Origin: Candidatus Dadabacteria bacterium
GTDB taxonomy: Bacteria; Desulfobacterota_D; UBA1144; Nemesobacterales; Nemesobacteraceae
Direction: 5' to 3'
Length of the DNA: 64,000 bases
Assembly: GCA_951812945.1 (NCBI GenBank)
Contig: CATOTB010000006.1
Span: 77,335-141,334 of the forward strand
Shown here in pieces: positions 1,248 to 15,479 of the stretch. Under the pieces are notes generated by a model, which saw only the letters and a program-made list of their open reading frames with translations, was not told the DNA's origin and did not search any database. How positions within the stretch are numbered: position 1 is the first letter of the stretch; each line of letters opens with the position of its first letter. Made by a program: the position numbers and the translations under genes.

Positions 1248-2996
1248 TTGGCGTCAACCCCTACAAACGACCACATCCGCTACGAGCCGGATGAGAAGTG
1301 CACGCCGCTCTCGTCCTTCGTCGTCGGCATACAGGGCATCGTGCTCGTGCTACCGCTTGCGGTTTCGATAGTGGTTATCAATGTTCTGGCGACCGGCCAG
1401 GACGAAGCATACCTGACCTGGTCCGTATTCTCGGCGCTGATAATCGTCGCGATAGTCACCGCGCTGCAAGCCTCCAGGATAGGTCGATTTGGCGCGGGGC
1501 ATCTGGTCGTCATGGGAGTGACGCCCAACTACATCCCGCTGTCGGTGCTCGCCTTGGATGAGGGAGGGCCAGCGATGCTGGCCAGCCTGATGGTTGTGTC
1601 CGCGTTCTTTTTCTTTGCGATAGCGACAAGGCTTCCGCAACTGCGGCGCGTGATAACGCCGACTGTGTCAGGCACAGTTCTTATGCTGATAGCCGTGATG
1701 GTGCTGCCCATCTGTTTGGATCGATTCGGGGAAGTACCGGAGGGTGCGCCGACATCCGCTGGGCTGTGCGTAGCTTTGGTAACGCTTGTGGTATCCACGG
1801 CGCTGATGCTGCGCGCCCCGAGGCGCTGGCGTCCGTGGTCCATACTGATCGGATTTGTGTCCGGCTGCATGGTCGCTGCCCTGTTGGGAGTGTACGACCT
1901 GGAGCCACTGTACACAGCACCGTGGGTCGGCATTCCCCAAGTCGGTTTCCAGGGATTGGACCTTACACTGACTGCCGGATTCTGGGCGCTGCTGCCGATG
2001 TTCTTGATTGTCACTCTGGTGCAGGCGATCAAAGGCATTGGAGACAACGTGGTGATTCAGCGGGTGTCGCGGCGCAGACCGAGGACGACCGATTTCCGGC
2101 TGCTGCAAGGTTCGCTCTACTCAAATGGGGTGGGTGTTTTGCTGTCGGGTCTTGCCGGAACGCCTCCTGCATCGCCATATTCGTCATTCACGGCGTCGGT
2201 CGTGAACATGACGGGAGTTGCCGCCCGCAATGTGGGATACGTCATAGCGATCATACTTCTGGGACTGGCATTGCTGCCAAAGTTCACGGGCGCGCTGCTC
2301 ACCATACCCAGTCCGGTGATGGGGGCATTTCTCTTGGTTGCTGTGGGAATATTTTTTGTCGAGGGAATACAGACTATCGTGCGGGACGGACTTGACTTTC
2401 AAAAGACCGTTGTGGTAGGCGTGTCGTTCGCGCTTGGCGCCGGGCTCGAGCAACAAAACATTCTTGAGAACTTGCTGGTGCACCCGTGGGGCACACTGCT
2501 TGGCAACGGCATCACTGTGGGCGCGGCAACGGCGATTGCGCTCAACGCCTTCCTGAATGTGACCAGTCCGCGTTCCAGGAAGCTTGAGATTCGACTGGAC
2601 TTTTCCGACCTGCCACGAATTGATGCCTTCATGCGGGAAGTTGCCGCCGATATGGGCTGGAGCGAGGAGGCGACCCAGCGGCTGCGTTCGGCGGGCGAGG
2701 AGACGCTGTCGAGCCTGTTACAGCCGGACAGCGGATATCCCGCGGATGGTGAGACGGACAAGGCTCCGCGCCTGATCATAGCCGTGCGTCCCGACGGCAG
2801 AGCAGCGGAGATGGAATTCATCTCGACGCTTGAGGACGAGGAGAACTTGGAGGACCGTCTTGCGTATCTGAATGAAGAGGACGAAAGCGTGGATGAGAGG
2901 GAAATATCGTTCCGCCTGCTGCGTCATTATGCTTCATCGGTGCGCCACCGGAAATATCAGGGGATGGATGTCGTTGCGGTGCGGGTCCAAGCGTAA
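1248..2996 (+). CDS. NCS2/SulP-fold (APC superfamily) permease with a ~150-aa C-terminal cytoplasmic extension (STAS-like or other regulatory domain, unresolved)
   Basis: 582 aa. TTG start preceded by GGGAGG. The N-terminal ~430 aa is polytopic membrane protein with a G-I-Q-G...PNYIPLSV pattern reminiscent of xanthine/uracil (NCS2) permeases. The C-terminal tail is soluble and acidic. GC-rich, inside the island. Confidence 0.55.
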   Translation: MASTPTNDHIRYEPDEKCTPLSSFVVGIQGIVLVLPLAVSIVVINVLATGQDEAYLTWSVFSALIIVAIVTALQASRIGRFGAGHLVVMGVTPNYIPLSVLALDEGGPAMLASLMVVSAFFFFAIATRLPQLRRVITPTVSGTVLMLIAVMVLPICLDRFGEVPEGAPTSAGLCVALVTLVVSTALMLRAPRRWRPWSILIGFVSGCMVAALLGVYDLEPLYTAPWVGIPQVGFQGLDLTLTAGFWALLPMFLIVTLVQAIKGIGDNVVIQRVSRRRPRTTDFRLLQGSLYSNGVGVLLSGLAGTPPASPYSSFTASVVNMTGVAARNVGYVIAIILLGLALLPKFTGALLTIPSPVMGAFLLVAVGIFFVEGIQTIVRDGLDFQKTVVVGVSFALGAGLEQQNILENLLVHPWGTLLGNGITVGAATAIALNAFLNVTSPRSRKLEIRLDFSDLPRIDAFMREVAADMGWSEEATQRLRSAGEETLSSLLQPDSGYPADGETDKAPRLIIAVRPDGRAAEMEFISTLEDEENLEDRLAYLNEEDESVDEREISFRLLRHYASSVRHRKYQGMDVVAVRVQA

Positions 2997-3039: not shown

Positions 3040-3945
3040 TTACGTAGTGATAATCGGCTCGATGAACTCAAGCATGGACTTGACGCATTCCTCTGGCTTT
3101 TCCAAGAGAAGAAGGTGCGTAGCGTCAGGCAGGAAGTCGTAGTCTACGGAGGACATATCACTCAGGTCGAGTGTTGGCAGGTATGAGTATGGCAAGGTCG
3201 GGTCAGCCCCGATGACCTTTGTCGGGCAGAGGAGCGACTGAAAGTCCACGAGTACGGCAAAGGCGCTTGCGTACTCTATTATCTGCGCCTGGTACTCAGG
3301 AGGGCAACAAGGTTCATACCCCTCTCCATTCTCACGCTCACGCAGGGTTGTTCTTGCATAAAGATCGAATACCCCGGGCACCACATGCTGGAAGGCTGGA
3401 ATGTAAGGAAGAATGTCCGCAAGTTCTTGCATGGTTTGAAATCGACTCGTGCTTTGACGGATACCTTTGGCCATACGTTTTGCGATATCTTCATAATCCT
3501 TAAAGCTCCGGCCAGGCTTGCAGAGAGGCGGGTCGAACAGAACCCGCGCTGCAAAGTCGCTGCCTTTTTTGGGTGATAGCAGAGTCGCCAGAGCCGCAAT
3601 TGAGTGGAACATGCCTATTCTGGGCTTTGCTCCATAGTGGCGGTCGATAGCCTCAACAATGGTGTCGTTGTCCTGAACCAATGTTGGAAGGCTATGGTTT
3701 TGAAGATCGCCTACCGGATTCCATCCATGGTTTCTGAGATCGTAGATTATTAGGTCGAAATCATTGGTCAGGAGCGACCAGAACGGATAATACAGGTCGA
3801 CTGCGAGGCCGTTGCCGTGGCTCATAACGAGTCGCGGTCCTGACGGATTTCCATGTTGCCGCAGCGTAATGACGGTTTCGTCGTCCACGCGGACATCGTG
3901 GGTGGAAAGCGGCTCAGGTAACTCCCATACGATTTCTGTAGTCAC
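3040..3945 (-). CDS. Alpha/beta-hydrolase fold protein, possibly a product-release or tailoring hydrolase of the PKS cluster
   Basis: 301 aa. An HG oxyanion motif (MSHGNGL), an HGWNP motif, and a nucleophile-elbow-like GMFHSIAA with a non-canonical F in the small-residue position. Overlaps the upstream PPTase gene by 4 nt, suggesting translational coupling. Confidence 0.55.
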   Translation of the reverse strand: MTTEIVWELPEPLSTHDVRVDDETVITLRQHGNPSGPRLVMSHGNGLAVDLYYPFWSLLTNDFDLIIYDLRNHGWNPVGDLQNHSLPTLVQDNDTIVEAIDRHYGAKPRIGMFHSIAALATLLSPKKGSDFAARVLFDPPLCKPGRSFKDYEDIAKRMAKGIRQSTSRFQTMQELADILPYIPAFQHVVPGVFDLYARTTLRERENGEGYEPCCPPEYQAQIIEYASAFAVLVDFQSLLCPTKVIGADPTLPYSYLPTLDLSDMSSVDYDFLPDATHLLLLEKPEECVKSMLEFIEPIITT

Positions 3946-4715
3946 TGGTAAATTCCTCGTCTTTCTGACACGTTACAGTTCAGTTGCTGTAATGACTGGT
4001 CGCCCAATTGGGACGGGGGAAGCTCATGTGCGATGGCTGCTGAGAAATCCTCGTTGCCAATGTATTCGACGCGCCAGTGCACTTCCGGCAGATGTGGGAA
4101 GCGAAATATGCTTATTCTCTCCTGATGCAAGGCTTGTGGCACTTCGAACTGAGACACATCAAGGGTAAAACCTAGGCCAAGAGCCTTGACGAGGGCTTCC
4201 TTGATGGTCCAGAGTCTGAAGAACAGTTGAACCCTATCCGATCCACGTGCACATGCAAGGGCGGACTGTTCATGAGGACCAAACACGGCTTCGCTCAGTT
4301 CGTCAAAATCCCTTCGGGAGACGCGCTCCTCTACATCCACGCCCAGCCGTCCATGGGGAACAAGAGCTATCAAGCCATGCTTTCTGCTGTGACTGAGGTT
4401 GAAACTGATGGCTGCCGGTTCCCCGTCTACTAGCGCAAACGGCTTTCCATAGTCAGATGAGCCGAAGCTGAGGCGTTCATTGCTGCAACCGAGCTGGCGA
4501 CAGAGGATAGACCGAAGCGCAACACGACACAGAGCAAACCTGCGACGAGGACCTGGGAGCGGATATTGGCGACAGCGCGCCTGCTCTTCCTCATTCAGCC
4601 ATAATAAAGATGATGCCTCACGGCTGGCATTAGGCCTCAGGTCTACATGTATGATGGTAACGGGACCAGCTTTATGGAAGAAACTCCACAAGCACCTTGC
4701 AGCAGAAGTGGACAT
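3942..4715 (-). CDS. 4'-phosphopantetheinyl transferase, Sfp type
   Basis: 257 aa. The two Sfp signature motifs are present (LGVDVEE and WTIKEALVKALG). Sits between the ACP and hydrolase genes of the PKS operon. Confidence 0.8.
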   Translation of the reverse strand: MSTSAARCLWSFFHKAGPVTIIHVDLRPNASREASSLLWLNEEEQARCRQYPLPGPRRRFALCRVALRSILCRQLGCSNERLSFGSSDYGKPFALVDGEPAAISFNLSHSRKHGLIALVPHGRLGVDVEERVSRRDFDELSEAVFGPHEQSALACARGSDRVQLFFRLWTIKEALVKALGLGFTLDVSQFEVPQALHQERISIFRFPHLPEVHWRVEYIGNEDFSAAIAHELPPSQLGDQSLQQLNCNVSERRGIYQ

Positions 4716-5105: not shown

Positions 5106-8100
5106 TTACACCCAGTGACGCCTGCGCTGGAACGGATAGGTCGGCAGCGAAATGCGGCGGCGCGACTCCCCGGCGAACATGCCCTCAAAGGAAAGTGCCA
5201 GTCCCGCCTCGTATGCCCCTGCAACCGCTTCCGCAAAACCAGTACTGTCCTCCTCTGAATCCTCGTCGGATGGTCGCATCAGGCTCGCAAGCACGAATGG
5301 TGAGGCGGCAGCTTCCTCTCCGTCCGACGAGTCCGGCCACTGAAGGTTCACCTGCGGTCCCAATACCGCTCCGGGGCCAATCTCCACCACCGTATCCACT
5401 CCCAGCTCGGCAAGCGTGGAAACACCTGTGCCAAACGCCTCAGTTTCGCACGCCTGCGTACGCCAGTACGCCACGTCGAGTGGATTGTCCGCATCCACAA
5501 CTCGCCCCGTAACGCCGCTCACCAGAGTCAGGGATGGAGGTGAGACCGCACTCTCTGCAAATGCCACTTCCAGGCCGTTTAGAGATTGGTTCGGGTCCGC
5601 TCCCGGCAGCGCCGCCATCAGCGTGCCACGAGTCAAGGCAAGGCGCAATCCGTCCTCCAAGGTGAAGACTCCCGCAGCCCACGCCGCGGCAATCTCACCC
5701 GTTCCGTGCCCCAGTGCGACGTTCGGGCGGATCCCAACGCTCGCCCAAAGCGCCGTCAGCGCGCACTCCAATGCATAGAGAGCCGGCTGCGCCCAAGCTG
5801 CATCATTCAAATCGCCCGTTGCTTCGGCGCGCCCGAACATCACATCGAGTAGCGATGCTCCTTTCTCTGCGCGCACCACGGCGTCACAGTGGTCCAAAAC
5901 AGCGCGCACGACCGGCTCGCTGTCGTACAGCGCCTCGCCCATACCAACCCACTGGCTGCCCTCGCCTGTGTATAAGAATGCCACCCTTGTTACAGGCTGT
6001 GGAGCCGGTTTATCAGGCGTAGCGACAGTCTCCGCGAGTTTCGTCAGCCCTGCACGCAGAGACTGCGTATCCCCGAACACTACGGCGGCACGATGGTCAA
6101 AATGGCTGCGTCCGACACTCGCCGTCCACGCTATGTCAGCAAGTGCAGGCGCTTTTGGAGACGACCCGGCAATGTGCTCGTCGAGCCACGACAGGTATTG
6201 TCCCGCCATGTCGCGCAGGGCGCCGTCCGACTTGCCCGATAGCGGCAGGAAACGCACCGTGCGCTCCGTTAGTCCGTCTGTAGCCAGCGGCAGATTCGCA
6301 ACCGGCTCCGGCAGGGAAACGGGCACCGGCAGTGCGGCACCCCTGAGCGACTGCACTCCAGCACTTGCGCTGTCATCCTCTGTCGCGATTCCGTAGCCTT
6401 CCACCACCATATGTGCGTTTGCGCCTGACATGCTGAACGCGCTTACTGCCGCGCGTGGCGGCTTGTCAGAATGGGGTGGCCAGTCGGTTTTTTCAGAAGT
6501 TACCCGCACGGGCAGTTGGTCCCAGTTGATTTGTGGATTCGGCTCCTTGAAATGCAGATGTTTCGGAATGACACCCTGCTTCATCGCCAGCACAGCCTTT
6601 ATCAGGCCGGCAACGCCCGCCGCCGTCTCCAGATGTCCGATATTTGACTTTACGGTGCCTATCAGCAGCGGACAGTCGGCGTCGCGCCCTCTGCCGTACA
6701 CCGAGCTGGCTGCGTGTACTTCAATTGCGTCGCCCAATTGGGAACCTGACGCGTGCGCTTCGAGATAGTCAACATCCGTTCCGGTGAGACCCGCCCGAAC
6801 AAGCGCCGCCTCCATAACACGTTCCTGTGCTGGACCGTTCGGGACGGTCAATCCCGCGCTTGTCCCGTTCTGGTTAACAGCAGAACCCTTGATGACGCCC
6901 CATATTCGATCTCCGTCAACCTCCGCCTCGCTCAGCCGTTTTAAAACGAGCATTCCGCAGCCCTCGCCGCGTACATGACCGTCCGCAGAAGCATCAAAGG
7001 GGTGACACTGCCCGCTCGGCGACAGCATCCCCACATCCAGCATGAATCTGGAAACATCGTGCGACAGAGCCGCATGCACGCCTCCGGCGAGAGCCAGGTC
7101 CACCTCGCCCCGCTGTAGCCCACCAACGGCTTGATGCGCCGCAGCCAATGCTGAGGCGCAGGCCATATCGATGGCCATCGCCGGGCCCTCCAGACCCAGT
7201 GCGGACGCGACCCGCCCGGTGGTGATGCTGGCCGTTGTGCCGAGGTGAATGCCAGTCTTACCGCTGGCCTCAATCACATGTCGGTATTCGCTGCCGGCGA
7301 CTCCGGCATACACCGCGGTGCGGCTGCCCCGCAGGCTGTCGGGAGCGATTCCAGCGTCTTCGACAGCCTCCCAACTCGTCTCCAACATCATTCTTTGCTG
7401 TGGGTCCATCATCCGCGCTTCTATCGGCGCAATGTGAAAGAATCGTGAGTCGAACCACTCGATATTCTCAACAAACGCACCGTGCAGGTGTGTGGTGCCC
7501 TCGGAGTTCGAGTCTCCAAAGGCGTCCCTACGCGGATCGCCAGCCTGGCGTCCGTCGGTCACTGCGTCAGTGCCCGATTCCAGAAGATGCCAGTATTCCG
7601 AAAGGTTTTTCGCGCTTGGGAAGCGGCATGCCATGCCGACTATCGCTATGTCGTCATCCTCAGTAGCGACGAGTGGGCGCGGCGGGGGTGCGGCTGTCTC
7701 GGGTGTTGGAGCCGTCCCATCGTCCCCATCCAGTTGACCGAGTTCGTCCGCCAGATAATGCGCTAAGGTTGTGACGTCGGGATAGTCGAAGACAGCTGTG
7801 TTGGAGACGACATACTCGCCCGCGAATGCGCGGTTGAGCCGGTTTCTCAGTTCTACTGCCATCAATGAGTCCATACCCAGATCGAAGAACCCCACCGTTG
7901 GCGTCGGCGCCGACGGCAGCCGCAGAACTGCCTGTACTTCCCCCTGCAGGAATGACACCAGCATGCCTTCGCGTTCCGCCACAGTCGTCTTCCGCACTCT
8001 GGACATCAGGTCGTCCGCCTGAGCGGGCGAGTCGGCGTCGGCCTCGGGACTGGTGGACAGCAGGTCTTCTAGCAGGGAGGGACGGTCTTCGACAGCCTCC

Positions 8101-11100
8101 TCAAAAACTGCCCAGTCCATGGACATCACCACGGAATTCGTTACGTCCTGGCGCACAAGTCTGTCAAACGCCCTGAGACCTTGCTGCGGTGTAAACCAGC
8201 GGCCACCGAGCGCCGCTCGTTGCCGTTCAATCCGGTCTCGTTGTTCCGCCGCTTCGCCGATCTCTGACCACGCCCCCCAGGCAATGGCCTGTCCCGGAAG
8301 CCCCACCGCCCGCCGGTGGGCGGCGAGCTGGTCCAGGAACGCATTGGCTGCGGCGTGGTTTGCCTGGCCCGGATTGCCCATGACGCCAACTCGGCTCGAA
8401 AAGAGGATGAAGAGCTCCAGATCGCGGTCCGCCGTCGCACGGTGCAGGTGCCAAGCGCCCAGCACTTTCGGCCACAGCACCTGCTCGAACCTCTCCCAAC
8501 TCTGGTTCGACAGTGAAGCGTCCGACAACACTCCCACGCTGTGAATCACTCCGCCGAGCGGCGGAAGTTCCCGATCCATCCGCGCCAGCATGTCGTCCAC
8601 AGCTGAGGCATCCGTCACATCTGCCAGTTCCACCCTCACCGTGGACCCGCGTTTACGCAACGAGTCGATCTCTTTTTCAACCTCGGGGTCTGGTGGTCGT
8701 CGTCCATTCAGCACGATCGCCCCCGCACCGTGATCCGCTAACCAGCCGGCCACGGCGCACCCGATACCGCCCAGGCCGCCGGTCACCAAGTAGGTCCGGT
8801 CCTGCCGCAAACCACCCCCCCCCGCAAGCGGTGGTGTCGTCACGACGATCTTCCCGAGGTGCCGGGCCGATCGCATGAATCTCAACGCAGCTCCCGCTTC
8901 GGCCAGGGGCCACCTGCTGTGGATAAGCGGTTTCAGTTCTCCCGCCGTAAGGCGCTCCATCACGTCCCGGAGAACCCTTCCGACCCAAGCCGGCTCAGTC
9001 TTCTTCAAAACATCCAACTCCAGGATGGAGTAGGCAACGTCGGGACGAACTGCCGCCATCTCCTCCTCGCTCAGAATGTCCCGCCTGGCCAATTCCACAA
9101 ACCGGCCACCCTGTGCTAGGCATGACAGACTCGCCTCGATGAATCCCTCTCCCGTCAGGCTGTTGAGCACCACGTCGACTCCTGCGCCGTCCGTGGCCTC
9201 GAGGATCTCTTCCCCGAACTTTGTCGTGCGGCTATCGAACACATGCTCCACACCGATGGAACGGAGATAGGGCTGCTTCGATGCACTCGCCGTGGTATAC
9301 ACCTCGATGCCTACAGCACGCGCCAACTGGATGGCCGCGAGTCCCACACCTCCAGCACCTGCGTGAATCAGCACCCGTTCGCCAGCGTTCAACCCTGAGA
9401 GCTCATACGAGAATGCGGCTGAGACGAACACATTCGGCACCGTGGCGAGACCCGTCACCGAGATTCCCGATGGCGCGGGCGCCACCAATTCCTCCCGTAT
9501 GATCATTTCGGCCGCGAACGCACCACCGAACCCCAATCCAACCACATGATCGCCGGCCGAGACGGTTGACACCTCGGAACCCACATCGAGCACGTGGCCA
9601 CACATCTCCTTGCCTAAGTTCCCCTCTTCAATGAAGCCAAGCGAACGAAATACATCCCAGAAATTCATTCCGGCAGCCTCGACCGCGACGCGGACTTCTT
9701 TCGGCTCCAGGGAACGCTCCGGCAGCGGCTTGACGTAAGGCTTGTCGAATATGCCGTCCGGGTCCGGAGCCAGCACCCAGGCCGACTGCTGCGGCAATGT
9801 TAACCGCTCCGTGTTGGTCCCGGCCCGGACCAGGCGGGCTACCATACGTCGGCCGTAGCGATGTGCGATGTGATTCTCGTGATCGGGATACAGCAGTTCG
9901 TCCGGGAGTTCAGGCGACTGCGTTTTTGAGGGGTCCAGGTCAATCATCCTCGGCTTTAGATGCGCCGCTTCGCGGGACACCACCTTCCCGAAACCCCATA
10001 GCGTCGCGCCGGCAAGTTCCCCGCCAAGCTCCTTCTCCAGCACCTGCGCGCCCCGCGTAAGAAACCACACTCCGTTCTCGGGCACCGCATCGGAGTCAAC
10101 CAGCCCCTGCGTCAACGCCAGTGCGCTCGCCACCGCTCGCCTCGTGTCCTTCGCCATCTCTTCGTTTGTCGCATTCAGGCCGTGGCCGCCCAGCGCCACG
10201 AGGTGCACGACTCCTTTCAGAGGCGCATCCCCGGGTAGGCACTCCAACAGCGATTGCCACGACTCGCGCCGCTCCATGTCCACCGTTGACCGGACAATGC
10301 CGGACCCGTCCACTTCTGAATTCCCGTTCTCCGGGAGTTGATGGTCCGCCAGCACGACTGTCTGGTTGCGTGCGGCCAGATCTGCTGCCAGTTCTTCGGC
10401 CACGCCAGCGCTGTCCGCCGCCAGAACCCAGATGCCCGGTCTTTCGGTCACCTCAGCCGGACCCCGCGCCACGATCACACCCTTATCCGGCATCTCGGCC
10501 GAGTCGGACTCTTCCAACCCCAGCACTTCTATTTCCCCGAAACCCACGTCAGTGAGTACGCGACGCCACACAGCAGGATCCACCAAGGCGTGTTGCGGTC
10601 GGTAGGCATCGGCGAACCGCCACCAGCCGTCCAACGGCCCGAAAGTCAAGTCCATCCAACCCATACCCCTCAGGTTCTCGAGCGCGACCAGCTGTCCTGA
10701 TGGCGCGAGAAGCCGCCGGCAGTGCGCAAGCGTCTCATTTAGGTATTGCGTGGCGTGCAACACATTGGATGCAATCACCAGGTCGTAACCGTGGAAATCG
10801 AATCCCTGCTCCACCGGATCCTTCTCGATATCCAGCATGCGGTAATCTATCGACGCTTCATCGCCTCCGAAGCGCGCCTCTGCTTCCGCAAAGAAGCCCG
10901 CCGAGATATCCGTGTACATGTAGTCGAACCGTCCTTCCGGGAGTTCCGGCAGGATGGCCGCGGTCGCCGACCCTGTACCCGCCCCGACTTCGATCACCCT
11001 GAGGCGTCGGCCGTCGGGCAACCCCGCCACAAGAGTCTGAACCGTTTCTCTCAGTATCCGGTTCGCCGCACGCGCCACCGGAGCTTTTCGATACAGATCG

Positions 11101-14100
11101 CCCGGGGTCGGGTCTCCGCTGCTAAACAGGATTGTCAACGGGTCCGCTCGGCCCAGCAGCACGTCTGCCAGGGCGTTACCAGACCGTCGAAAAAGCCCGA
11201 TCTCGGTCAAGCCGTGGGGATATAGCTCAGCTATTCGGGTAGCGAATTCTTCTGTGTCAAGCGGCATTTCATCCGGCAAGGGATCCCCGGATCCGATCCT
11301 CACGACGAAGTTGCCGTCCACCTCCTCCAACACTCCGGACTTGGCCAGCATCTCGAGCATCCGGCGGAACAAGCGCTTATGCTCCTCCACGACATTCAAG
11401 CGCCGCCGCAAGTCCTCTGAATCCACGGCCGCGCCCCCCTCGCGTTCCCACCCCAGCTTCTTCAAGGTCTCTAGCGCGCAGGATCGAGACCACCTCTCCA
11501 GGTCAGTCAGGAGGGCGCTTCTGTCCTTGGGCGTGACTCCTTCGTCGGCCAAATAATCTGAGAGCAACCCCGAGCGCGTTGCAACCGTTGCCTGAGACGC
11601 GAGGAAATCTGCGGACAGCATTCCGGGCGTGAGAGCCCTTTCGCGCCACACAACCTCATACAGCAGTTCATTCACCCCTTCGACTGCGGAGAGCAGCGCC
11701 GCCCGCGTCGCGCGTTTCACCATGTATCCGCTCAACCCGCCAAGCAGAACTCCATTGGGATCGTAGATGCGCAATTCTCCGTTCCAGACCTCGGGCGGCT
11801 CGCCCTGTTCCACTTCCGTTCCTTGGGAAGCCTCACTCATGCGCACGTGGCAGAGCAAGCGATCCGGCAGCCGATCCGCCAGCCACAGTCGCTCCCAGCC
11901 AAATGGTAGATAGGTGGTTTCCTCTTCTGCCCCGCCTGGATTGCGCGCTGCGGCCATAACCTGAAAGCAACCGTCCAGCAGGAGCGGATGAACGTCCAGC
12001 CCGTTGCGGCCGAGAGCTTCAGGGAAAGAAATCTCGCCTAACGCCTCGCCCGGCCGGGACCAGACCCTCCCGAGCGTACGGAAGAACGGGCCGAGATTAA
12101 TCCCCGTACTGGCCCGGGCACGGTAGTAGGCTGCCACGTCTATTGGCGACAGAGGGGCCTTGAGGCTTTCGAGATCGATCCGCCTACCGGCTTCCGGCAT
12201 CGGGGCGTCCGGCGATACGCGGCCTTCCACGTGTAACGTCCAGCCCTCTCCACTCCCCTTGCTGAATATCTGGACACGACGCGAATTTGCCCGCTCGGAA
12301 GAATCAAGCACAACCTGCACCTTTCGGCCCTCGTCACCGGTACCGTCCTCGGAACCCTCCTCCGGGAAAATCAGCGCGTTGTGCAGCTGCATGTCCTCCA
12401 CAACCACCGCGCCGCTCTCTTCTGTAAGGGATACCGATGCCGCCATGGCCCCATAGAGCGCGCCCGGAGCTATAACCCGGCCGAACACCCGGTGGTCGCT
12501 CAACCACTCCGGATCCGACCGGAACACTTCTGTCTCGAATGTGACCTCGCCGCTGGCGGATTCGTGCCGGACCCCCAGCAAGGGGTGGCCGACGCCCGAG
12601 CGTTGTTTTCTATTTGAATCAAGCCAATGGCGTTCGCGTTGGAATGGATAGCTTGGCAACGAGATGCGACGGCGCGCCTCCCCCGCGAAGAGCCCTTCAA
12701 AACGAATCGGGAGCCCCGCCTGATACGCTTCCGCGACCGCCCGCGTGAAATCGGCGCCATCCGCGGACGCTCGGGATTCACCAGACGGTGGGCGCAGGCT
12801 TGACAGCACCGTGGGTGGCGGTGTCTGTACCGAGTCCGGCCAAGCCGCGCCCGTCATCGTGGCCAGGATCGGTCTCGGCCCTATCTCCAACACCAAGTCC
12901 ACCCCGAGTTCCGCCAACGTCCGGACACCGCGGGCGAACGCCACCTTCTCGCGGGCATGCTGCCTCCAGTAGGCTCCGTCCAGCGCTTGGCCAGGCTCCA
13001 GCGCTTGGCCAGTCAGGTTGCTGACCACGGTGAGGGAGGGTGGTTCGATCGCCACACTATCCAAGGAAGCTTCCAGCATGTCCAGAGCTGGCTCCACCAA
13101 GGCGCTGTGGAACGCGCGGGCTGTGTTCAGCCGTCTTACCCGGACTCCTTCCGATTCGAAGCGCTTCGAGATGGTTTCAATCTCTGCAACCGGGCCGCTC
13201 ACCACTTGGTGGCCGCCGTTGTCCGCCGAGATGCTCAGCCCAGCACTGGCAGATGATTCGTTCAGCTCCTCGACCGTTGACGCCACTCGTGCCGGAGTGG
13301 CAAAAACCGCTGCCATTGCGCCCGGTTCGGTTTCCGACAGCAGGGTGCCCCGCGCCGCGGCAAACCGCATTCCATCCTCCATGCTGAACACTCCCGCTGC
13401 CTGCGCCGCCGCCAGTTCCCCGACACTGTGCCCCAACACCACGCTGGGACGAACCCCTACACTCGACCAGAGCGCCGTGAGCGCGCACTCGAGGGCGTAG
13501 AGGGTCGGCTGCTCCCACGCCGTATCGCTCAGATTGCCTTCGCCGCACCCGAACATCACGTCAAGCAACGAGGCGCCTCTTTCAGCCCGAAACACCTCCT
13601 CACAGCGGTCGAGAACCGCCCGCGCCACCGGCTCACGTTCGTAGAGCGCCTTTCCCATGCCGGCCCATTGGCTTCCTTGCCCGGTATAAACAAACGCCAC
13701 TTTCATCGCTGTTTGCGGCCCTGGACTCTCGCCCACATTCCCCAGCGCTTTCAGCCCCTCCCGTAGCGACCCGGTATCCCGAAACACCACGCCTGCACGA
13801 TGATCAAAATGGCTCCTCCCTACGCCTGCAGTCCACGCCATGTCCGAGAGTAAGGGTTCTAAAGAGGTGCTTTGGGAAGCAAGATCCTCTGGATGCTCGT
13901 CCAGCCACAAGAGGTAACGCTCCGCAAGTTCCCGGAGTGCGGTCACCGATTTGCCGGACAGCGGCAGCAACCGGGTCTCGCGCTTCCTTAACCCTTGCTC
14001 AGGCAGCGGCAAACTCTCCGCGGCCTTCGGCAAAGAGACTGTCACTGTCTGGGCTGAGCCAACAAGCTGACGCTTCCCGTAGGGCAATTCCCCTGGGGCA

Positions 14101-15479
14101 ATGTATTCTTCCACCACTATGTGGGCGTTCGTCCCGGATATCCCGAAGGAGTTTACTCCTGCCAGTCGCGCCCGTCCGCCACGCTGAGGTAAGTCCATCA
14201 TGGACGAAGTAACCTTTAAAGGCAGTTGGTCCCAATCGAGGCTAGGGTTGGGAACCTGGAAATGCAGGTGCTTCGGAATCACGCCGCGCTGCATCACCAG
14301 CACTGCCTTGATCAGACCAGCGATTCCGGCAGCCGACTCGAGGTGGCCGATATTGGTCTTTACGGAACCGATCAAAAGAGGATGATCGGCTTTGCGTCCT
14401 CTGCCGTAGACAGCGGAGACGGCCTCGATCTCAATCGGGTCGCCTACAGCTGTTCCAGTTCCGTGCGCCTCCAGGTAATCCACATCCGAAGCGGGAACTC
14501 CGGCCTGCGACAGCGCCGCTTCCATCACCTGTTCCAATGCGGGGGTGTGCGGTACGGTCAGTCCGGTGCCGGGTCCGCCGTTATTCACCGCCGAGCCTCG
14601 GATCACCCCCCAGATCCGATCGCCATCCTCCTCGGCCTCGCTCAGCCGTTTCAGGATAACGACGCCGCAACCTTCACCGCGCACGTAACCGTTCGCAGAC
14701 GCATCGAACGTCTTGCACTGCCCGTCCGGAGACAGCATCATCGCATCCGCACGGAGTTCGAAAATGCGACTGTTCAGGATGGCCTGCACACCGCCTGCAA
14801 TGGCCAGATCCGCCTTGCCCTGCTGCAGGTCTGCCACCGCGTCGTGGACCGACACCATGGACGACGCGCACGCGGCGTCCACTGCCTTTGCTGGTCCCAT
14901 GAGGCCCAGCACGAAAGAGACCCGTCCGCTGGTACCGTTGAGGTTTGTGCCGCTCAGAGCATAAAGACATGAGGCGGCCTCGGCAGGTTTCCTTGACTCC
15001 ACTACCAGCATCCTGTATTCGTCGTTGCTGATCCCGGTGTATACCCCGGTGCGGCTGCCCTTCAGCCGATCCGGATCCATACCCGCATCCTCAAGAGCCT
15101 CCCAAGTGGTTTCCAGCATCATCCGCTGCTGTGGATCCAGCAACTGGGCCTCGACCGGAGAAATACGAAAGAACCCCGCGTCGAACTGCTCGATTCCGTC
15201 GACATAGCCACAGAAACGACAGGCCTTGCTCGGAATCTGTCCATCGGGGAAAAGCTCGTCCATACGCCCGACGCCGGAACCTGGGACGCCCTCCGTCACC
15301 ACGTTCTGGCCGGCTTCGAGCAGGCGCCAAAAGGCCGGTATACTCGGTGCGCCGGGGAACCGGCACCCCATGCCCACGATTGCTATCGGTGGACCGAGTC
15401 CAGATTTTTCCTGTCTCTGAATTTCAGAGTGGGGCGATGATTCCCCAGAGGAATCGCAAGACTTGTTTGATTCCGTCAT
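5106..15479 (-). CDS. Type I polyketide synthase with domains KS-AT-DH-cMT-ER-KR-ACP-KS-AT(degenerate)
   Basis: 3457 aa, ATG preceded by GGGAGGGAG. KS1: DAACASS Cys, EAHGTGT, NIGHLE. AT1: GHSVGE plus RAFHS (malonyl-type). DH: HRVFGRVIAPG plus LLDGCFQ. cMT: VIEVGAGTGS SAM motif. ER: LIHAGAGGVGLAAIQLA. KR: TGGLGGIG. ACP: FFDLGMDSL. KS2: DMACAS, EAHASGS, NIGHLE. AT2: GHGTGE, no Ser. Ends ...YPFQRRRHWV. Confidence 0.95.
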   Translation of the reverse strand: MTESNKSCDSSGESSPHSEIQRQEKSGLGPPIAIVGMGCRFPGAPSIPAFWRLLEAGQNVVTEGVPGSGVGRMDELFPDGQIPSKACRFCGYVDGIEQFDAGFFRISPVEAQLLDPQQRMMLETTWEALEDAGMDPDRLKGSRTGVYTGISNDEYRMLVVESRKPAEAASCLYALSGTNLNGTSGRVSFVLGLMGPAKAVDAACASSMVSVHDAVADLQQGKADLAIAGGVQAILNSRIFELRADAMMLSPDGQCKTFDASANGYVRGEGCGVVILKRLSEAEEDGDRIWGVIRGSAVNNGGPGTGLTVPHTPALEQVMEAALSQAGVPASDVDYLEAHGTGTAVGDPIEIEAVSAVYGRGRKADHPLLIGSVKTNIGHLESAAGIAGLIKAVLVMQRGVIPKHLHFQVPNPSLDWDQLPLKVTSSMMDLPQRGGRARLAGVNSFGISGTNAHIVVEEYIAPGELPYGKRQLVGSAQTVTVSLPKAAESLPLPEQGLRKRETRLLPLSGKSVTALRELAERYLLWLDEHPEDLASQSTSLEPLLSDMAWTAGVGRSHFDHRAGVVFRDTGSLREGLKALGNVGESPGPQTAMKVAFVYTGQGSQWAGMGKALYEREPVARAVLDRCEEVFRAERGASLLDVMFGCGEGNLSDTAWEQPTLYALECALTALWSSVGVRPSVVLGHSVGELAAAQAAGVFSMEDGMRFAAARGTLLSETEPGAMAAVFATPARVASTVEELNESSASAGLSISADNGGHQVVSGPVAEIETISKRFESEGVRVRRLNTARAFHSALVEPALDMLEASLDSVAIEPPSLTVVSNLTGQALEPGQALDGAYWRQHAREKVAFARGVRTLAELGVDLVLEIGPRPILATMTGAAWPDSVQTPPPTVLSSLRPPSGESRASADGADFTRAVAEAYQAGLPIRFEGLFAGEARRRISLPSYPFQRERHWLDSNRKQRSGVGHPLLGVRHESASGEVTFETEVFRSDPEWLSDHRVFGRVIAPGALYGAMAASVSLTEESGAVVVEDMQLHNALIFPEEGSEDGTGDEGRKVQVVLDSSERANSRRVQIFSKGSGEGWTLHVEGRVSPDAPMPEAGRRIDLESLKAPLSPIDVAAYYRARASTGINLGPFFRTLGRVWSRPGEALGEISFPEALGRNGLDVHPLLLDGCFQVMAAARNPGGAEEETTYLPFGWERLWLADRLPDRLLCHVRMSEASQGTEVEQGEPPEVWNGELRIYDPNGVLLGGLSGYMVKRATRAALLSAVEGVNELLYEVVWRERALTPGMLSADFLASQATVATRSGLLSDYLADEGVTPKDRSALLTDLERWSRSCALETLKKLGWEREGGAAVDSEDLRRRLNVVEEHKRLFRRMLEMLAKSGVLEEVDGNFVVRIGSGDPLPDEMPLDTEEFATRIAELYPHGLTEIGLFRRSGNALADVLLGRADPLTILFSSGDPTPGDLYRKAPVARAANRILRETVQTLVAGLPDGRRLRVIEVGAGTGSATAAILPELPEGRFDYMYTDISAGFFAEAEARFGGDEASIDYRMLDIEKDPVEQGFDFHGYDLVIASNVLHATQYLNETLAHCRRLLAPSGQLVALENLRGMGWMDLTFGPLDGWWRFADAYRPQHALVDPAVWRRVLTDVGFGEIEVLGLEESDSAEMPDKGVIVARGPAEVTERPGIWVLAADSAGVAEELAADLAARNQTVVLADHQLPENGNSEVDGSGIVRSTVDMERRESWQSLLECLPGDAPLKGVVHLVALGGHGLNATNEEMAKDTRRAVASALALTQGLVDSDAVPENGVWFLTRGAQVLEKELGGELAGATLWGFGKVVSREAAHLKPRMIDLDPSKTQSPELPDELLYPDHENHIAHRYGRRMVARLVRAGTNTERLTLPQQSAWVLAPDPDGIFDKPYVKPLPERSLEPKEVRVAVEAAGMNFWDVFRSLGFIEEGNLGKEMCGHVLDVGSEVSTVSAGDHVVGLGFGGAFAAEMIIREELVAPAPSGISVTGLATVPNVFVSAAFSYELSGLNAGERVLIHAGAGGVGLAAIQLARAVGIEVYTTASASKQPYLRSIGVEHVFDSRTTKFGEEILEATDGAGVDVVLNSLTGEGFIEASLSCLAQGGRFVELARRDILSEEEMAAVRPDVAYSILELDVLKKTEPAWVGRVLRDVMERLTAGELKPLIHSRWPLAEAGAALRFMRSARHLGKIVVTTPPLAGGGGLRQDRTYLVTGGLGGIGCAVAGWLADHGAGAIVLNGRRPPDPEVEKEIDSLRKRGSTVRVELADVTDASAVDDMLARMDRELPPLGGVIHSVGVLSDASLSNQSWERFEQVLWPKVLGAWHLHRATADRDLELFILFSSRVGVMGNPGQANHAAANAFLDQLAAHRRAVGLPGQAIAWGAWSEIGEAAEQRDRIERQRAALGGRWFTPQQGLRAFDRLVRQDVTNSVVMSMDWAVFEEAVEDRPSLLEDLLSTSPEADADSPAQADDLMSRVRKTTVAEREGMLVSFLQGEVQAVLRLPSAPTPTVGFFDLGMDSLMAVELRNRLNRAFAGEYVVSNTAVFDYPDVTTLAHYLADELGQLDGDDGTAPTPETAAPPPRPLVATEDDDIAIVGMACRFPSAKNLSEYWHLLESGTDAVTDGRQAGDPRRDAFGDSNSEGTTHLHGAFVENIEWFDSRFFHIAPIEARMMDPQQRMMLETSWEAVEDAGIAPDSLRGSRTAVYAGVAGSEYRHVIEASGKTGIHLGTTASITTGRVASALGLEGPAMAIDMACASALAAAHQAVGGLQRGEVDLALAGGVHAALSHDVSRFMLDVGMLSPSGQCHPFDASADGHVRGEGCGMLVLKRLSEAEVDGDRIWGVIKGSAVNQNGTSAGLTVPNGPAQERVMEAALVRAGLTGTDVDYLEAHASGSQLGDAIEVHAASSVYGRGRDADCPLLIGTVKSNIGHLETAAGVAGLIKAVLAMKQGVIPKHLHFKEPNPQINWDQLPVRVTSEKTDWPPHSDKPPRAAVSAFSMSGANAHMVVEGYGIATEDDSASAGVQSLRGAALPVPVSLPEPVANLPLATDGLTERTVRFLPLSGKSDGALRDMAGQYLSWLDEHIAGSSPKAPALADIAWTASVGRSHFDHRAAVVFGDTQSLRAGLTKLAETVATPDKPAPQPVTRVAFLYTGEGSQWVGMGEALYDSEPVVRAVLDHCDAVVRAEKGASLLDVMFGRAEATGDLNDAAWAQPALYALECALTALWASVGIRPNVALGHGTGEIAAAWAAGVFTLEDGLRLALTRGTLMAALPGADPNQSLNGLEVAFAESAVSPPSLTLVSGVTGRVVDADNPLDVAYWRTQACETEAFGTGVSTLAELGVDTVVEIGPGAVLGPQVNLQWPDSSDGEEAAASPFVLASLMRPSDEDSEEDSTGFAEAVAGAYEAGLALSFEGMFAGESRRRISLPTYPFQRRRHWV
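5310..5990 (-). other. PKS domain AT2, degenerate and predicted inactive
   Basis: aa ~3164-3390. The active-site motif reads GHGTGE (nt 5697-5711) instead of GHSxG. The ~70 aa carrying the specificity motif are absent relative to AT1. Confidence 0.75.
6390..7655 (-). other. PKS domain KS2 (second ketosynthase)
   Basis: aa ~2609-3030. Cys2774 in DMACAS, His2909 and His2949 present. Confidence 0.8.
7740..7982 (-). other. PKS domain ACP (integrated)
   Basis: aa ~2500-2580. GMDSL with Ser2538. Confidence 0.8.
8220..8798 (-). other. PKS domain KR (ketoreductase) with His in place of the catalytic Tyr
   Basis: aa ~2228-2420. TGGLGGIG Rossmann motif. SSRVGVMGNPGQANHAAANAF has H2375 (nt 8355-8357) where the canonical motif is GQxNYAAAN. 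Confidence 0.7.
8835..9782 (-). other. PKS domain ER (enoylreductase)
   Basis: aa ~1900-2215. NADPH-binding LIHAGAGGVGLAAIQLA. Confidence 0.8.
10530..11342 (-). other. PKS domain cMT (C-methyltransferase)
   Basis: aa ~1380-1650. ExGxGxG SAM-binding motif VIEVGAGTGS at aa 1496-1505. Confidence 0.75.
11730..12602 (-). other. PKS domain DH (dehydratase)
   Basis: aa ~960-1250. HxxxGxxxxP with His996, and DxxxQ with D1169. Confidence 0.75.
12810..13700 (-). other. PKS domain AT1 (acyltransferase, malonyl-type signature)
   Basis: aa ~594-890. GHSVG Ser685 and an RAFHS specificity motif. Confidence 0.8.
14106..15389 (-). other. PKS domain KS1 (ketosynthase)
   Basis: aa ~31-458. Catalytic Cys204 is encoded at 14868-14870, and both catalytic His motifs are present. 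Confidence 0.85.

Follow-up and report, generated by a model that had tools for sequence, protein, structure and literature searches.

A conserved histidine at the catalytic tyrosine position of the ketoreductase domain in a SupA-like polyketide synthase family

The 64,000-nucleotide stretch of Candidatus Dadabacteria DNA analysed here (contig CATOTB010000006.1, positions 77,335 to 141,334; hereafter the window) carries a gene for a type I polyketide synthase (PKS) similar to SupA of the "sponge symbiont ubiquitous" (Sup) kind. The ketoreductase (KR) domain of this PKS has a histidine, His2375, in place of the catalytic tyrosine. The gene is a single unbroken open reading frame (ORF) of 3457 amino acids on the minus strand (positions 5106-15479), and all PKS features described below lie on that strand. 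Its domains are, in order, ketosynthase (KS), acyltransferase (AT), dehydratase (DH), C-methyltransferase (cMT), enoylreductase (ER), KR, acyl carrier protein (ACP), and a second KS and AT, a layout repeated exactly in more than 60 related loci of metagenome-assembled genomes (MAGs) from about ten phyla. Judged from the sequences of relatives, the His-for-Tyr replacement is a fixed, selected trait of the SupA-like family and its close relatives. We propose, with a probability of about 0.7, that the KR is an active B1-type reductase which uses His, and neither an error nor a dead domain.

Codon 8355-8357 reads GTG on the forward strand, which is CAC on the coding minus strand, and specifies His2375 inside GNPGQANHAAANAFLD, in the motif GQANHAAAN. 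The initial annotation had placed the KR at 8220-8798, with CAC (His) at the catalytic Tyr of short-chain dehydrogenases/reductases (SDRs). The Pfam match to the KR catalytic subdomain (PF08659; positions 8262-8795, aa 2229-2406, E 2.5e-62) agrees with this placement, and the codon is as it had been read. The register of the motif, for which comparison with reference KRs had been advised, was checked by a phmmer search of the KR against all PDB chains. The best match was mycocerosic acid synthase (MAS) of M. tuberculosis (9d2z, E 1.3e-46), followed by AmphB KR2 (3mjv), EryKR1, and TylKR1. Alignments to 9d2z and 3mjv are free of gaps around the motif, and His2375 pairs with the catalytic Tyr of both: gnpgqanHaaanafld is aligned with gspgqgaYaaanswvd of MAS and with gsggqpgYaaanayld of AmphB KR2. 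Residues Lys2338, Ser2362, and Asn2379 likewise pair with their counterparts in the two enzymes. The catalytic subdomain contains a sole Tyr, Y2230 in strand beta-1 (RTYLVTGG), and no other Tyr can therefore take the catalytic position. A register error or an alternative Tyr is ruled out by these observations, and the site of the catalytic Tyr in the YxxxN motif is occupied by His2375.

The remaining catalytic and cofactor-binding residues of the KR are retained. The glycine-rich NADPH motif TGGLGGIG (aa 2233-2240; positions 8760-8783) is conserved or near-identical in the tabulated SupA-like KRs, and the NGRR motif which follows it (aa 2258-2261) is present in every one of them. Among 98 KR domains of related loci, the catalytic Lys2338 (WPKV; 8466-8468) is found in all, encoded by AAA in 16 and AAG in 82, and Asn2379 of the YxxxN motif, here HAAAN (8343-8345), in 97. 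The catalytic Ser2362 (FSS; 8394-8396), located 13 residues ahead of His2375, is also conserved, and each of the three residues is kept in 97-98 of the 98 domains. Structure modelling, suggested earlier as a check, revealed a normal KR fold: the AlphaFold2 model built with 37 homologues has a mean pLDDT of 85.3, and its best Foldseek matches are PKS KRs, with TM scores of 0.74-0.77 (AmphB KR2, EryKR1). The Rossmann fold and the glycine-rich NADPH motif place the domain in the PKS/FAS-type KR class (SDR "complex", PF08659). Loss of the NADPH motif and/or Asn, which characterizes C-type (non-reducing) KRs, is not observed here, as both are intact and conserved.

Relatives were collected by scanning one genome per species, which yielded 559 relatives, and the best 80 loci, almost all from MAGs, were kept. 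These loci span Acidobacteriota, Nitrospinota, Binatia, Alpha- and Gammaproteobacteria, Chloroflexota, Latescibacterota, Gemmatimonadota, Verrucomicrobiota, Rhodothermales, and Actinomycetota. His occupies the catalytic site in 75 of their 98 KR domains, including those of all monomodular PKSs. A readable motif was present in 111 database homologues, 102 with His and 9 with Tyr, and the His forms include proteins of just 44-50% identity. The search for Tyr in relatives, also proposed in the initial annotation, was answered by these two counts. All 120 homologues listed from the database are shorter than 500 aa, although PKSs of ~3400 aa exist in the scanned genomes; the protein collection either contains nothing but fragmentary gene calls for this family or under-represents long proteins. 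A broad survey of 150 diverse representative PKSs, comprising 487 KR domains, gave Tyr in 452, His in 23, and other residues in 12. In the neighbour-joining tree of KRs, all monomodular sequences are grouped in one all-His clade, and its sister group is formed by multimodular PKSs.

His in the KRs of related loci is encoded by CAC in 46 cases and by CAT in 29, and the use of both codons indicates that the residue was held while its codon drifted. These data bear on the alternative that the codon results from an error in sequencing or assembly, or that a mutation from TAC to CAC inactivated the KR in this strain only. A single T-to-C transition would be enough for a Tyr-to-His change, but the same residue is present in 102 independent homologues and in 75 KRs of independent MAGs from many phyla, where CAC and CAT both encode it, and the ORF is unbroken over 3457 codons. 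An error or a private mutation is refuted by this distribution, and its probability is close to nil.

In some genomes, two SupA-like PKS genes lie near each other. As an illustration, loci L001 and L048 have overlapping ranges on contig VXMF01000036.1 of a Terriglobia MAG, and L047 includes the tail of one copy located directly upstream of another. Such pairs imply paralogous copies in one symbiont.

The type of the KR was assessed by fingerprint residues. In B-type KRs an LDD motif, with an invariant second Asp, lies ~57 residues before the catalytic residue, Trp at position -8 denotes A type, and Gln at -3 denotes A1 or B1 (bioRxiv 10.1101/2021.06.30.450545). At the LDD site, positions -57 to -55 from His2375, this KR reads L2318-S-D2320 (8520-8528), in which the second Asp is kept, and most of its KR relatives read LSD or LAD. 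The residue at -8 is M2367, not Trp, and the residue at -3 is Q2372. The fingerprint also considers Pro at +2, where A2377 is found instead. By sequence, the KR carries the B1-type fingerprint, the type expected in a module with a DH. The initial annotation held that stereochemistry could not be assigned, a view not supported by the combination of LSD at -57 to -55, a residue other than Trp at -8, and Gln at -3.

Whether the KR is alive can be approached through selection and through the state of its partner domains. Values of dN/dS were computed with our own NG86 script; dS is near saturation (~1.1-1.4), and their ranking alone is trustworthy. No other domain of the PKS is as well conserved as the KR: KRs of related loci have a mean identity of 75.5% to that of the window, and in 45 of 57 loci the KR is one of the two best-conserved domains. 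Its dN/dS of 0.163 is close to that of KS1 (0.167) and cMT (0.147), while DH has 0.279 and the C-terminal AT2 the highest value, 0.30. The nucleophilic Ser of the GHSxG motif is lost from AT2 in about 49 of 51 loci, and identity of AT2, 50.7%, is the lowest among the domains. On this conservation pattern, AT2 illustrates what a dead domain looks like within the same protein, and the pattern of the KR is quite different. In addition, motifs of DH (HxxxGxxxxP, DxxxQ), ER, cMT, and ACP are conserved family-wide, across about ten phyla.

These results have to be weighed against the possibility that the KR is reductase-dead and serves only as a scaffold of the DH-ER-KR region, in which case a 2-methyl-3-keto intermediate would be released or passed on, with DH and ER idle. 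Every characterised KR uses Tyr as the general acid, and replacement of this residue by Phe abolishes activity (PMC7327777). Tyr is also found in 93% of the broad KR sample, and rule-based annotation would call a KR with His2375 inactive. However, the family strictly retains TGGLGGIG, NGRR, Lys, Ser, and Asn, which is the opposite of the C-type pattern and favours KR activity. Intact DH and ER point in the same direction, since the substrate of these domains requires ketoreduction first, and preservation of their motifs in about ten phyla would be hard to explain without a substrate. The KR is also the most conserved domain, with a dN/dS of 0.16 (0.163 above), and looks different from the decayed AT2 in the same protein, while its His was maintained through synonymous codon turnover, without drift. 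We therefore consider a dead KR improbable.

The initial annotation had left two options, a His that works or a reducing loop that is partly non-functional; the first is favoured here, with an estimate that also covers the activity assumed by the tuning idea described below, and the second disfavoured. It had also stated that either option would change the predicted product. This does not follow, as an active KR with His would leave the fully reduced, alpha-methylated chain unchanged.

Residues that might compensate for the loss of Tyr were sought by comparing KRs with His and with Tyr. Only positions 2375 and 2409 separate the two sets. The second, Glu2409 (8253-8255), lies in the lid helix, which reads GEA instead of the canonical GMA, and accompanies His in 75 of 86 KRs of the Sup clade. 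Canonical Met at 2409 was never observed alongside His in the compared set. Divergent His-KRs of 44-55% identity have Ala, Ser, or Val at this site, by which an obligate His2375-Glu2409 dyad is ruled out.

The multimodular PKSs of the sister group are composed of repeated KS-AT-DH-cMT-KR-ACP modules, in which KRs with His and with Tyr are interleaved in the neighbour-joining tree. One His/Tyr pair is 95.7% identical. Comparison of their DHs, limited to the DxxxQ motif, showed that modules with His and modules with Tyr alike have an intact Asp motif, LDACFQ. Near-identical His/Tyr pairs combined with an intact DH indicate that the switch needs no compensating change; on sequence grounds it would either make no functional difference or be a deliberate element of programming. 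The giant multimodular PKSs are located in loci L061, L063, L064, and L065 of Alphaproteobacteria, Rhodothermales, and Bryobacterales MAGs, and also in L056, L057, and L062. Their KRs are 85-96% identical between modules, even between phyla, and their product might be a polymethylated polyene or polyol.

KRs with His are, as far as domain annotation indicates, strongly associated with C-methylating modules. The cMT is present in all monomodular loci, and in multimodular relatives it accompanies 11 of 11 His-KR modules vs 7 of 14 Tyr-KR modules. Among the 150 diverse PKSs, a cMT was found with 14 of 23 KRs with His and with 5 of 452 with Tyr. A separate case is locus L081 (ENA ERZ25039504 contig_49274, 306944-328206), a bimodular PKS with a KS-AT-cMT-ACP module followed by KS-AT-DH-cMT-ER-KR-ACP, in which a 48%-identical KR with His is again accompanied by a cMT. 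Gene calls of this PKS are fragmented, probably by assembly frameshifts. Downstream are an ACP-hydrolase, a hydrolase, a polysaccharide-synthesis protein, and two glycosyltransferases, a gene content that resembles a cluster for a glycolipid or capsule lipid.

The interleaving of the two residues also speaks for another alternative, a KR that is conditional or attenuated for programming purposes. His would lower the activity or narrow the substrate range of such a KR, which would reduce only methylated substrates or those of certain length. Products would be partly reduced in some cycles or modules, and in the multimodular relatives the choice of His or Tyr would encode the positions that become reduced. 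Alternation of nearly identical KRs within the same assembly lines agrees with this possibility, as does the confinement of KRs with His to cMT modules. Furthermore, programming through KR selectivity and through kinetic competition among domains is an accepted principle for iterative highly reducing PKSs (PMC10941261). On the other side, DH motifs are equally intact in modules with either residue, and sequence alone cannot distinguish such a KR from an ordinarily active one. We regard this explanation as unlikely.

Under the preferred reading, that of an active KR with His, the PKS would be a monomodular, C-methylating, fully reducing type I enzyme of the Sup kind that makes methyl-branched fatty acids. 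KS1 would condense malonate loaded by AT1, and cMT would methylate C-2. The KR would then reduce the 2-methyl-3-ketoacyl-ACP with NADPH to the D-hydroxy product, and His2375 would take over the proton-donor or the carbonyl-polarising role of Tyr beside Ser2362, Lys2338, and Asn2379. The reduction would be completed by DH and ER. A more speculative suggestion, made because KRs with His are almost always located in cMT modules, is that His tunes the rate or the substrate preference of the KR so that methylation, for which the unreduced ketone is needed, precedes reduction. Still more tentative is a fuller version, which we find rather doubtful: the large, horizontally spread clade of KRs with His, in which the otherwise near-universal Tyr of SDRs is exchanged, would be fully active, His as the general acid would be an adaptive device that slows or gates ketoreduction so that cMT acts first, and the choice between Tyr and His would programme the multimodular relatives.

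Several points weigh against an active KR. We infer KR activity, the proton-donor role of His, its tuning effect, and the nature of the product from sequences, here as for the rest of the family. A Tyr152-to-His change in Drosophila alcohol dehydrogenase is said to have abolished activity, and if so, His alone would not obviously be sufficient. A compensating residue was not found in the comparison of KRs with His and with Tyr, since Glu2409 is lost in divergent sequences with His. Because dS approaches saturation, dN/dS values are relative only, and conservation of the KR can also reflect a structural role, as this domain scaffolds the modifying region. The association with cMT is confounded and inflated by shared ancestry. 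Finally, alternation of His and Tyr could equally represent programmed on/off switching of reduction.

The other domains of the PKS were identified by Pfam and by their motifs. KS1 (14259-15389) has an intact Cys-His-His triad (DAACASS, EAHGTGT, NIGHLE), and AT1 (12789-13694) has GHSVGE and RAFHS, the latter of malonyl type. DH (11694-12587) has intact HRVFGRVIAP, LLLDGCFQ, and YLPFG, the cMT core (10668-11060) has the S-adenosylmethionine-binding motif EVGAGTG, and ER (8841-9704) has the NADPH motif HAGAGGVG. The ACP (7752-7949) carries LGMDSL. The initial annotation was right in describing DH and ER as intact, to which cMT can be added, and in placing the KR in a fully reducing module. It missed the wider context, in particular the cMT within the module and the Sup-like monomodular cassette.

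The specificity motif of AT1 (aa 788-792) is RAFHS, which corresponds to the malonyl-type xAFH, but PAYHS is present in 26 of 59 related loci. The two forms may differ in the preferred extender unit within the PKS family. The protein ends in a KS2-AT2 pair (5109-7607) without a following ACP. The second, C-terminal ketosynthase KS2 (6270-7607) keeps Cys-His-His, and the triad is retained in ~61 related loci. AT2 (5109-6032), recognized as a degenerate AT-like domain by its motif and conservation, has GHGTGE, in which the nucleophilic Ser is lost, and the nucleophile site is highly variable in relatives. The combination of an apparently active terminal KS and a dead AT points to transfer of the chain to a different system, which may be the fatty acid synthase (FAS) of the cell itself.

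Three neighbouring genes recur in the related loci. A 4'-phosphopantetheinyl transferase (PPTase; 3942-4715, minus strand) adjoins the PKS in many of them, an alpha/beta hydrolase with a probable role in chain release (3040-3945, minus strand) usually lies beside it, and a permease of the Xan_ur_permease family (1248-2996, plus strand) was found beside it in at least 32. The hydrolase of the window is 100% identical to a protein in NCBI/ENA, and a 90% relative carries the label of a Gemmatimonadetes MAG. The G+C content of the PKS is 62% and that of the adjacent permease 59%, while the rest of the window (16000-64000) has ~50% and holds housekeeping genes (LolA, FtsK, NuoN, ParB). Because of this G+C contrast and because near-identical cassettes exist in about ten phyla, the data are consistent with horizontal acquisition of the PKS cassette.

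The domain order of the PKS was compared with that of SupA. As in Sup PKSs, it is monomodular and FAS-like, with a methyltransferase and a full reducing loop (KS-AT-DH-cMT-ER-KR-ACP). Next to it lie the genes for the PPTase, hydrolase, and permease, which related loci conserve as well. Isolate names of the related loci resemble those of sponge-microbiome bins, although the record titles state no isolation source. Membership of the cassette in the Sup family is well supported, though not proven, by its architecture, distribution, and neighbours. Sup PKSs are small, monomodular enzymes that dominate sponge metagenomes, and mid-chain methyl-branched fatty acids are their proposed products (PMC4245539, PMC9864124). 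A permease of the original sup clone, pAPKS18, is named "SupE" (PMC3908369).

The state of the KR matters for predicting the products of these PKSs. Rule-based tools require Ser, Tyr, and Asn for an active KR, and would therefore predict beta-keto products for abundant Sup-like PKSs, in contrast to the long-standing proposal that they make saturated methyl-branched fatty acids. If the KR with His is active, the accepted catalytic set of SDRs needs an exception, and a one-residue switch (H2375Y/F) would offer an experimental handle on the order of ketoreduction and C-methylation in highly reducing modules. If it is inactive, a PKS family that ranks among the most widespread in symbionts has been assigned the wrong product.

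In the full-text literature reached, KRs of the His type are not described for Sup or any other PKSs, and none of the searchable papers describes a KR with His for Tyr, an active C-terminal KS2, or a dead AT2 in the Sup family. One review, with reference to Keatinge-Clay 2012 but no example, calls Tyr "sometimes replaced by histidine"; the remark may be a confusion with the His at -3 of A2-type KRs. The gene family is already known, while the family-wide replacement of Tyr by His in the KR and its link to cMT appear to be undescribed within the literature reached.

Among known enzymes, C-type KRs such as PikKR3 (3qp9) likewise miss one canonical catalytic residue. C-type KRs also lose NADPH binding. 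The window KR is the reverse of this type, since Tyr alone is changed while Asn and the cofactor motifs are strictly kept. Reductase-incompetent C-type KRs are without the active-site Asn, and the C2 types keep Tyr and Ser (PMC7327777). Outside the SDRs, a precedent for His as the general acid in hydride transfer to a carbonyl makes the proposed role of His2375 plausible. NAD(P)H-dependent carbonyl reductases of this kind include lactate and malate dehydrogenases, with a His-Asp pair, and 3-hydroxyacyl-CoA dehydrogenase, with a His-Glu pair. These enzymes have unrelated folds, and an obligate acidic partner was not found for His2375, given that Glu2409 is not universal.

The similarity to B1-type KRs of modular PKSs is closer. 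They share LxD at -57 to -55, absence of Trp at -8, Gln at -3, absence of Pro at +2, and a DH downstream, and differ in the catalytic Tyr that anchors this numbering, which is His in the window. The best sequence match among solved structures is to KRs of MAS and MAS-like PKSs (PDB 9d2z, 5bp4), which have the same DH-ER-KR layout and make methyl-branched fatty acids, but MAS, unlike the KR described here, keeps the canonical Tyr (gqgaYaaan). The methyl branches of MAS products come via methylmalonyl-CoA, not from a cMT domain. With SupA (Fieseler et al. 2007, Hochmuth et al. 2010), the PKS shares a single FAS-like, fully reducing module with a methyltransferase. The likeness extends to the primer motifs DPQQR and HGTGT, both found in the KS of the window, and to the permease alongside, as in the original clone; PPTase and hydrolase genes also accompany the window PKS.

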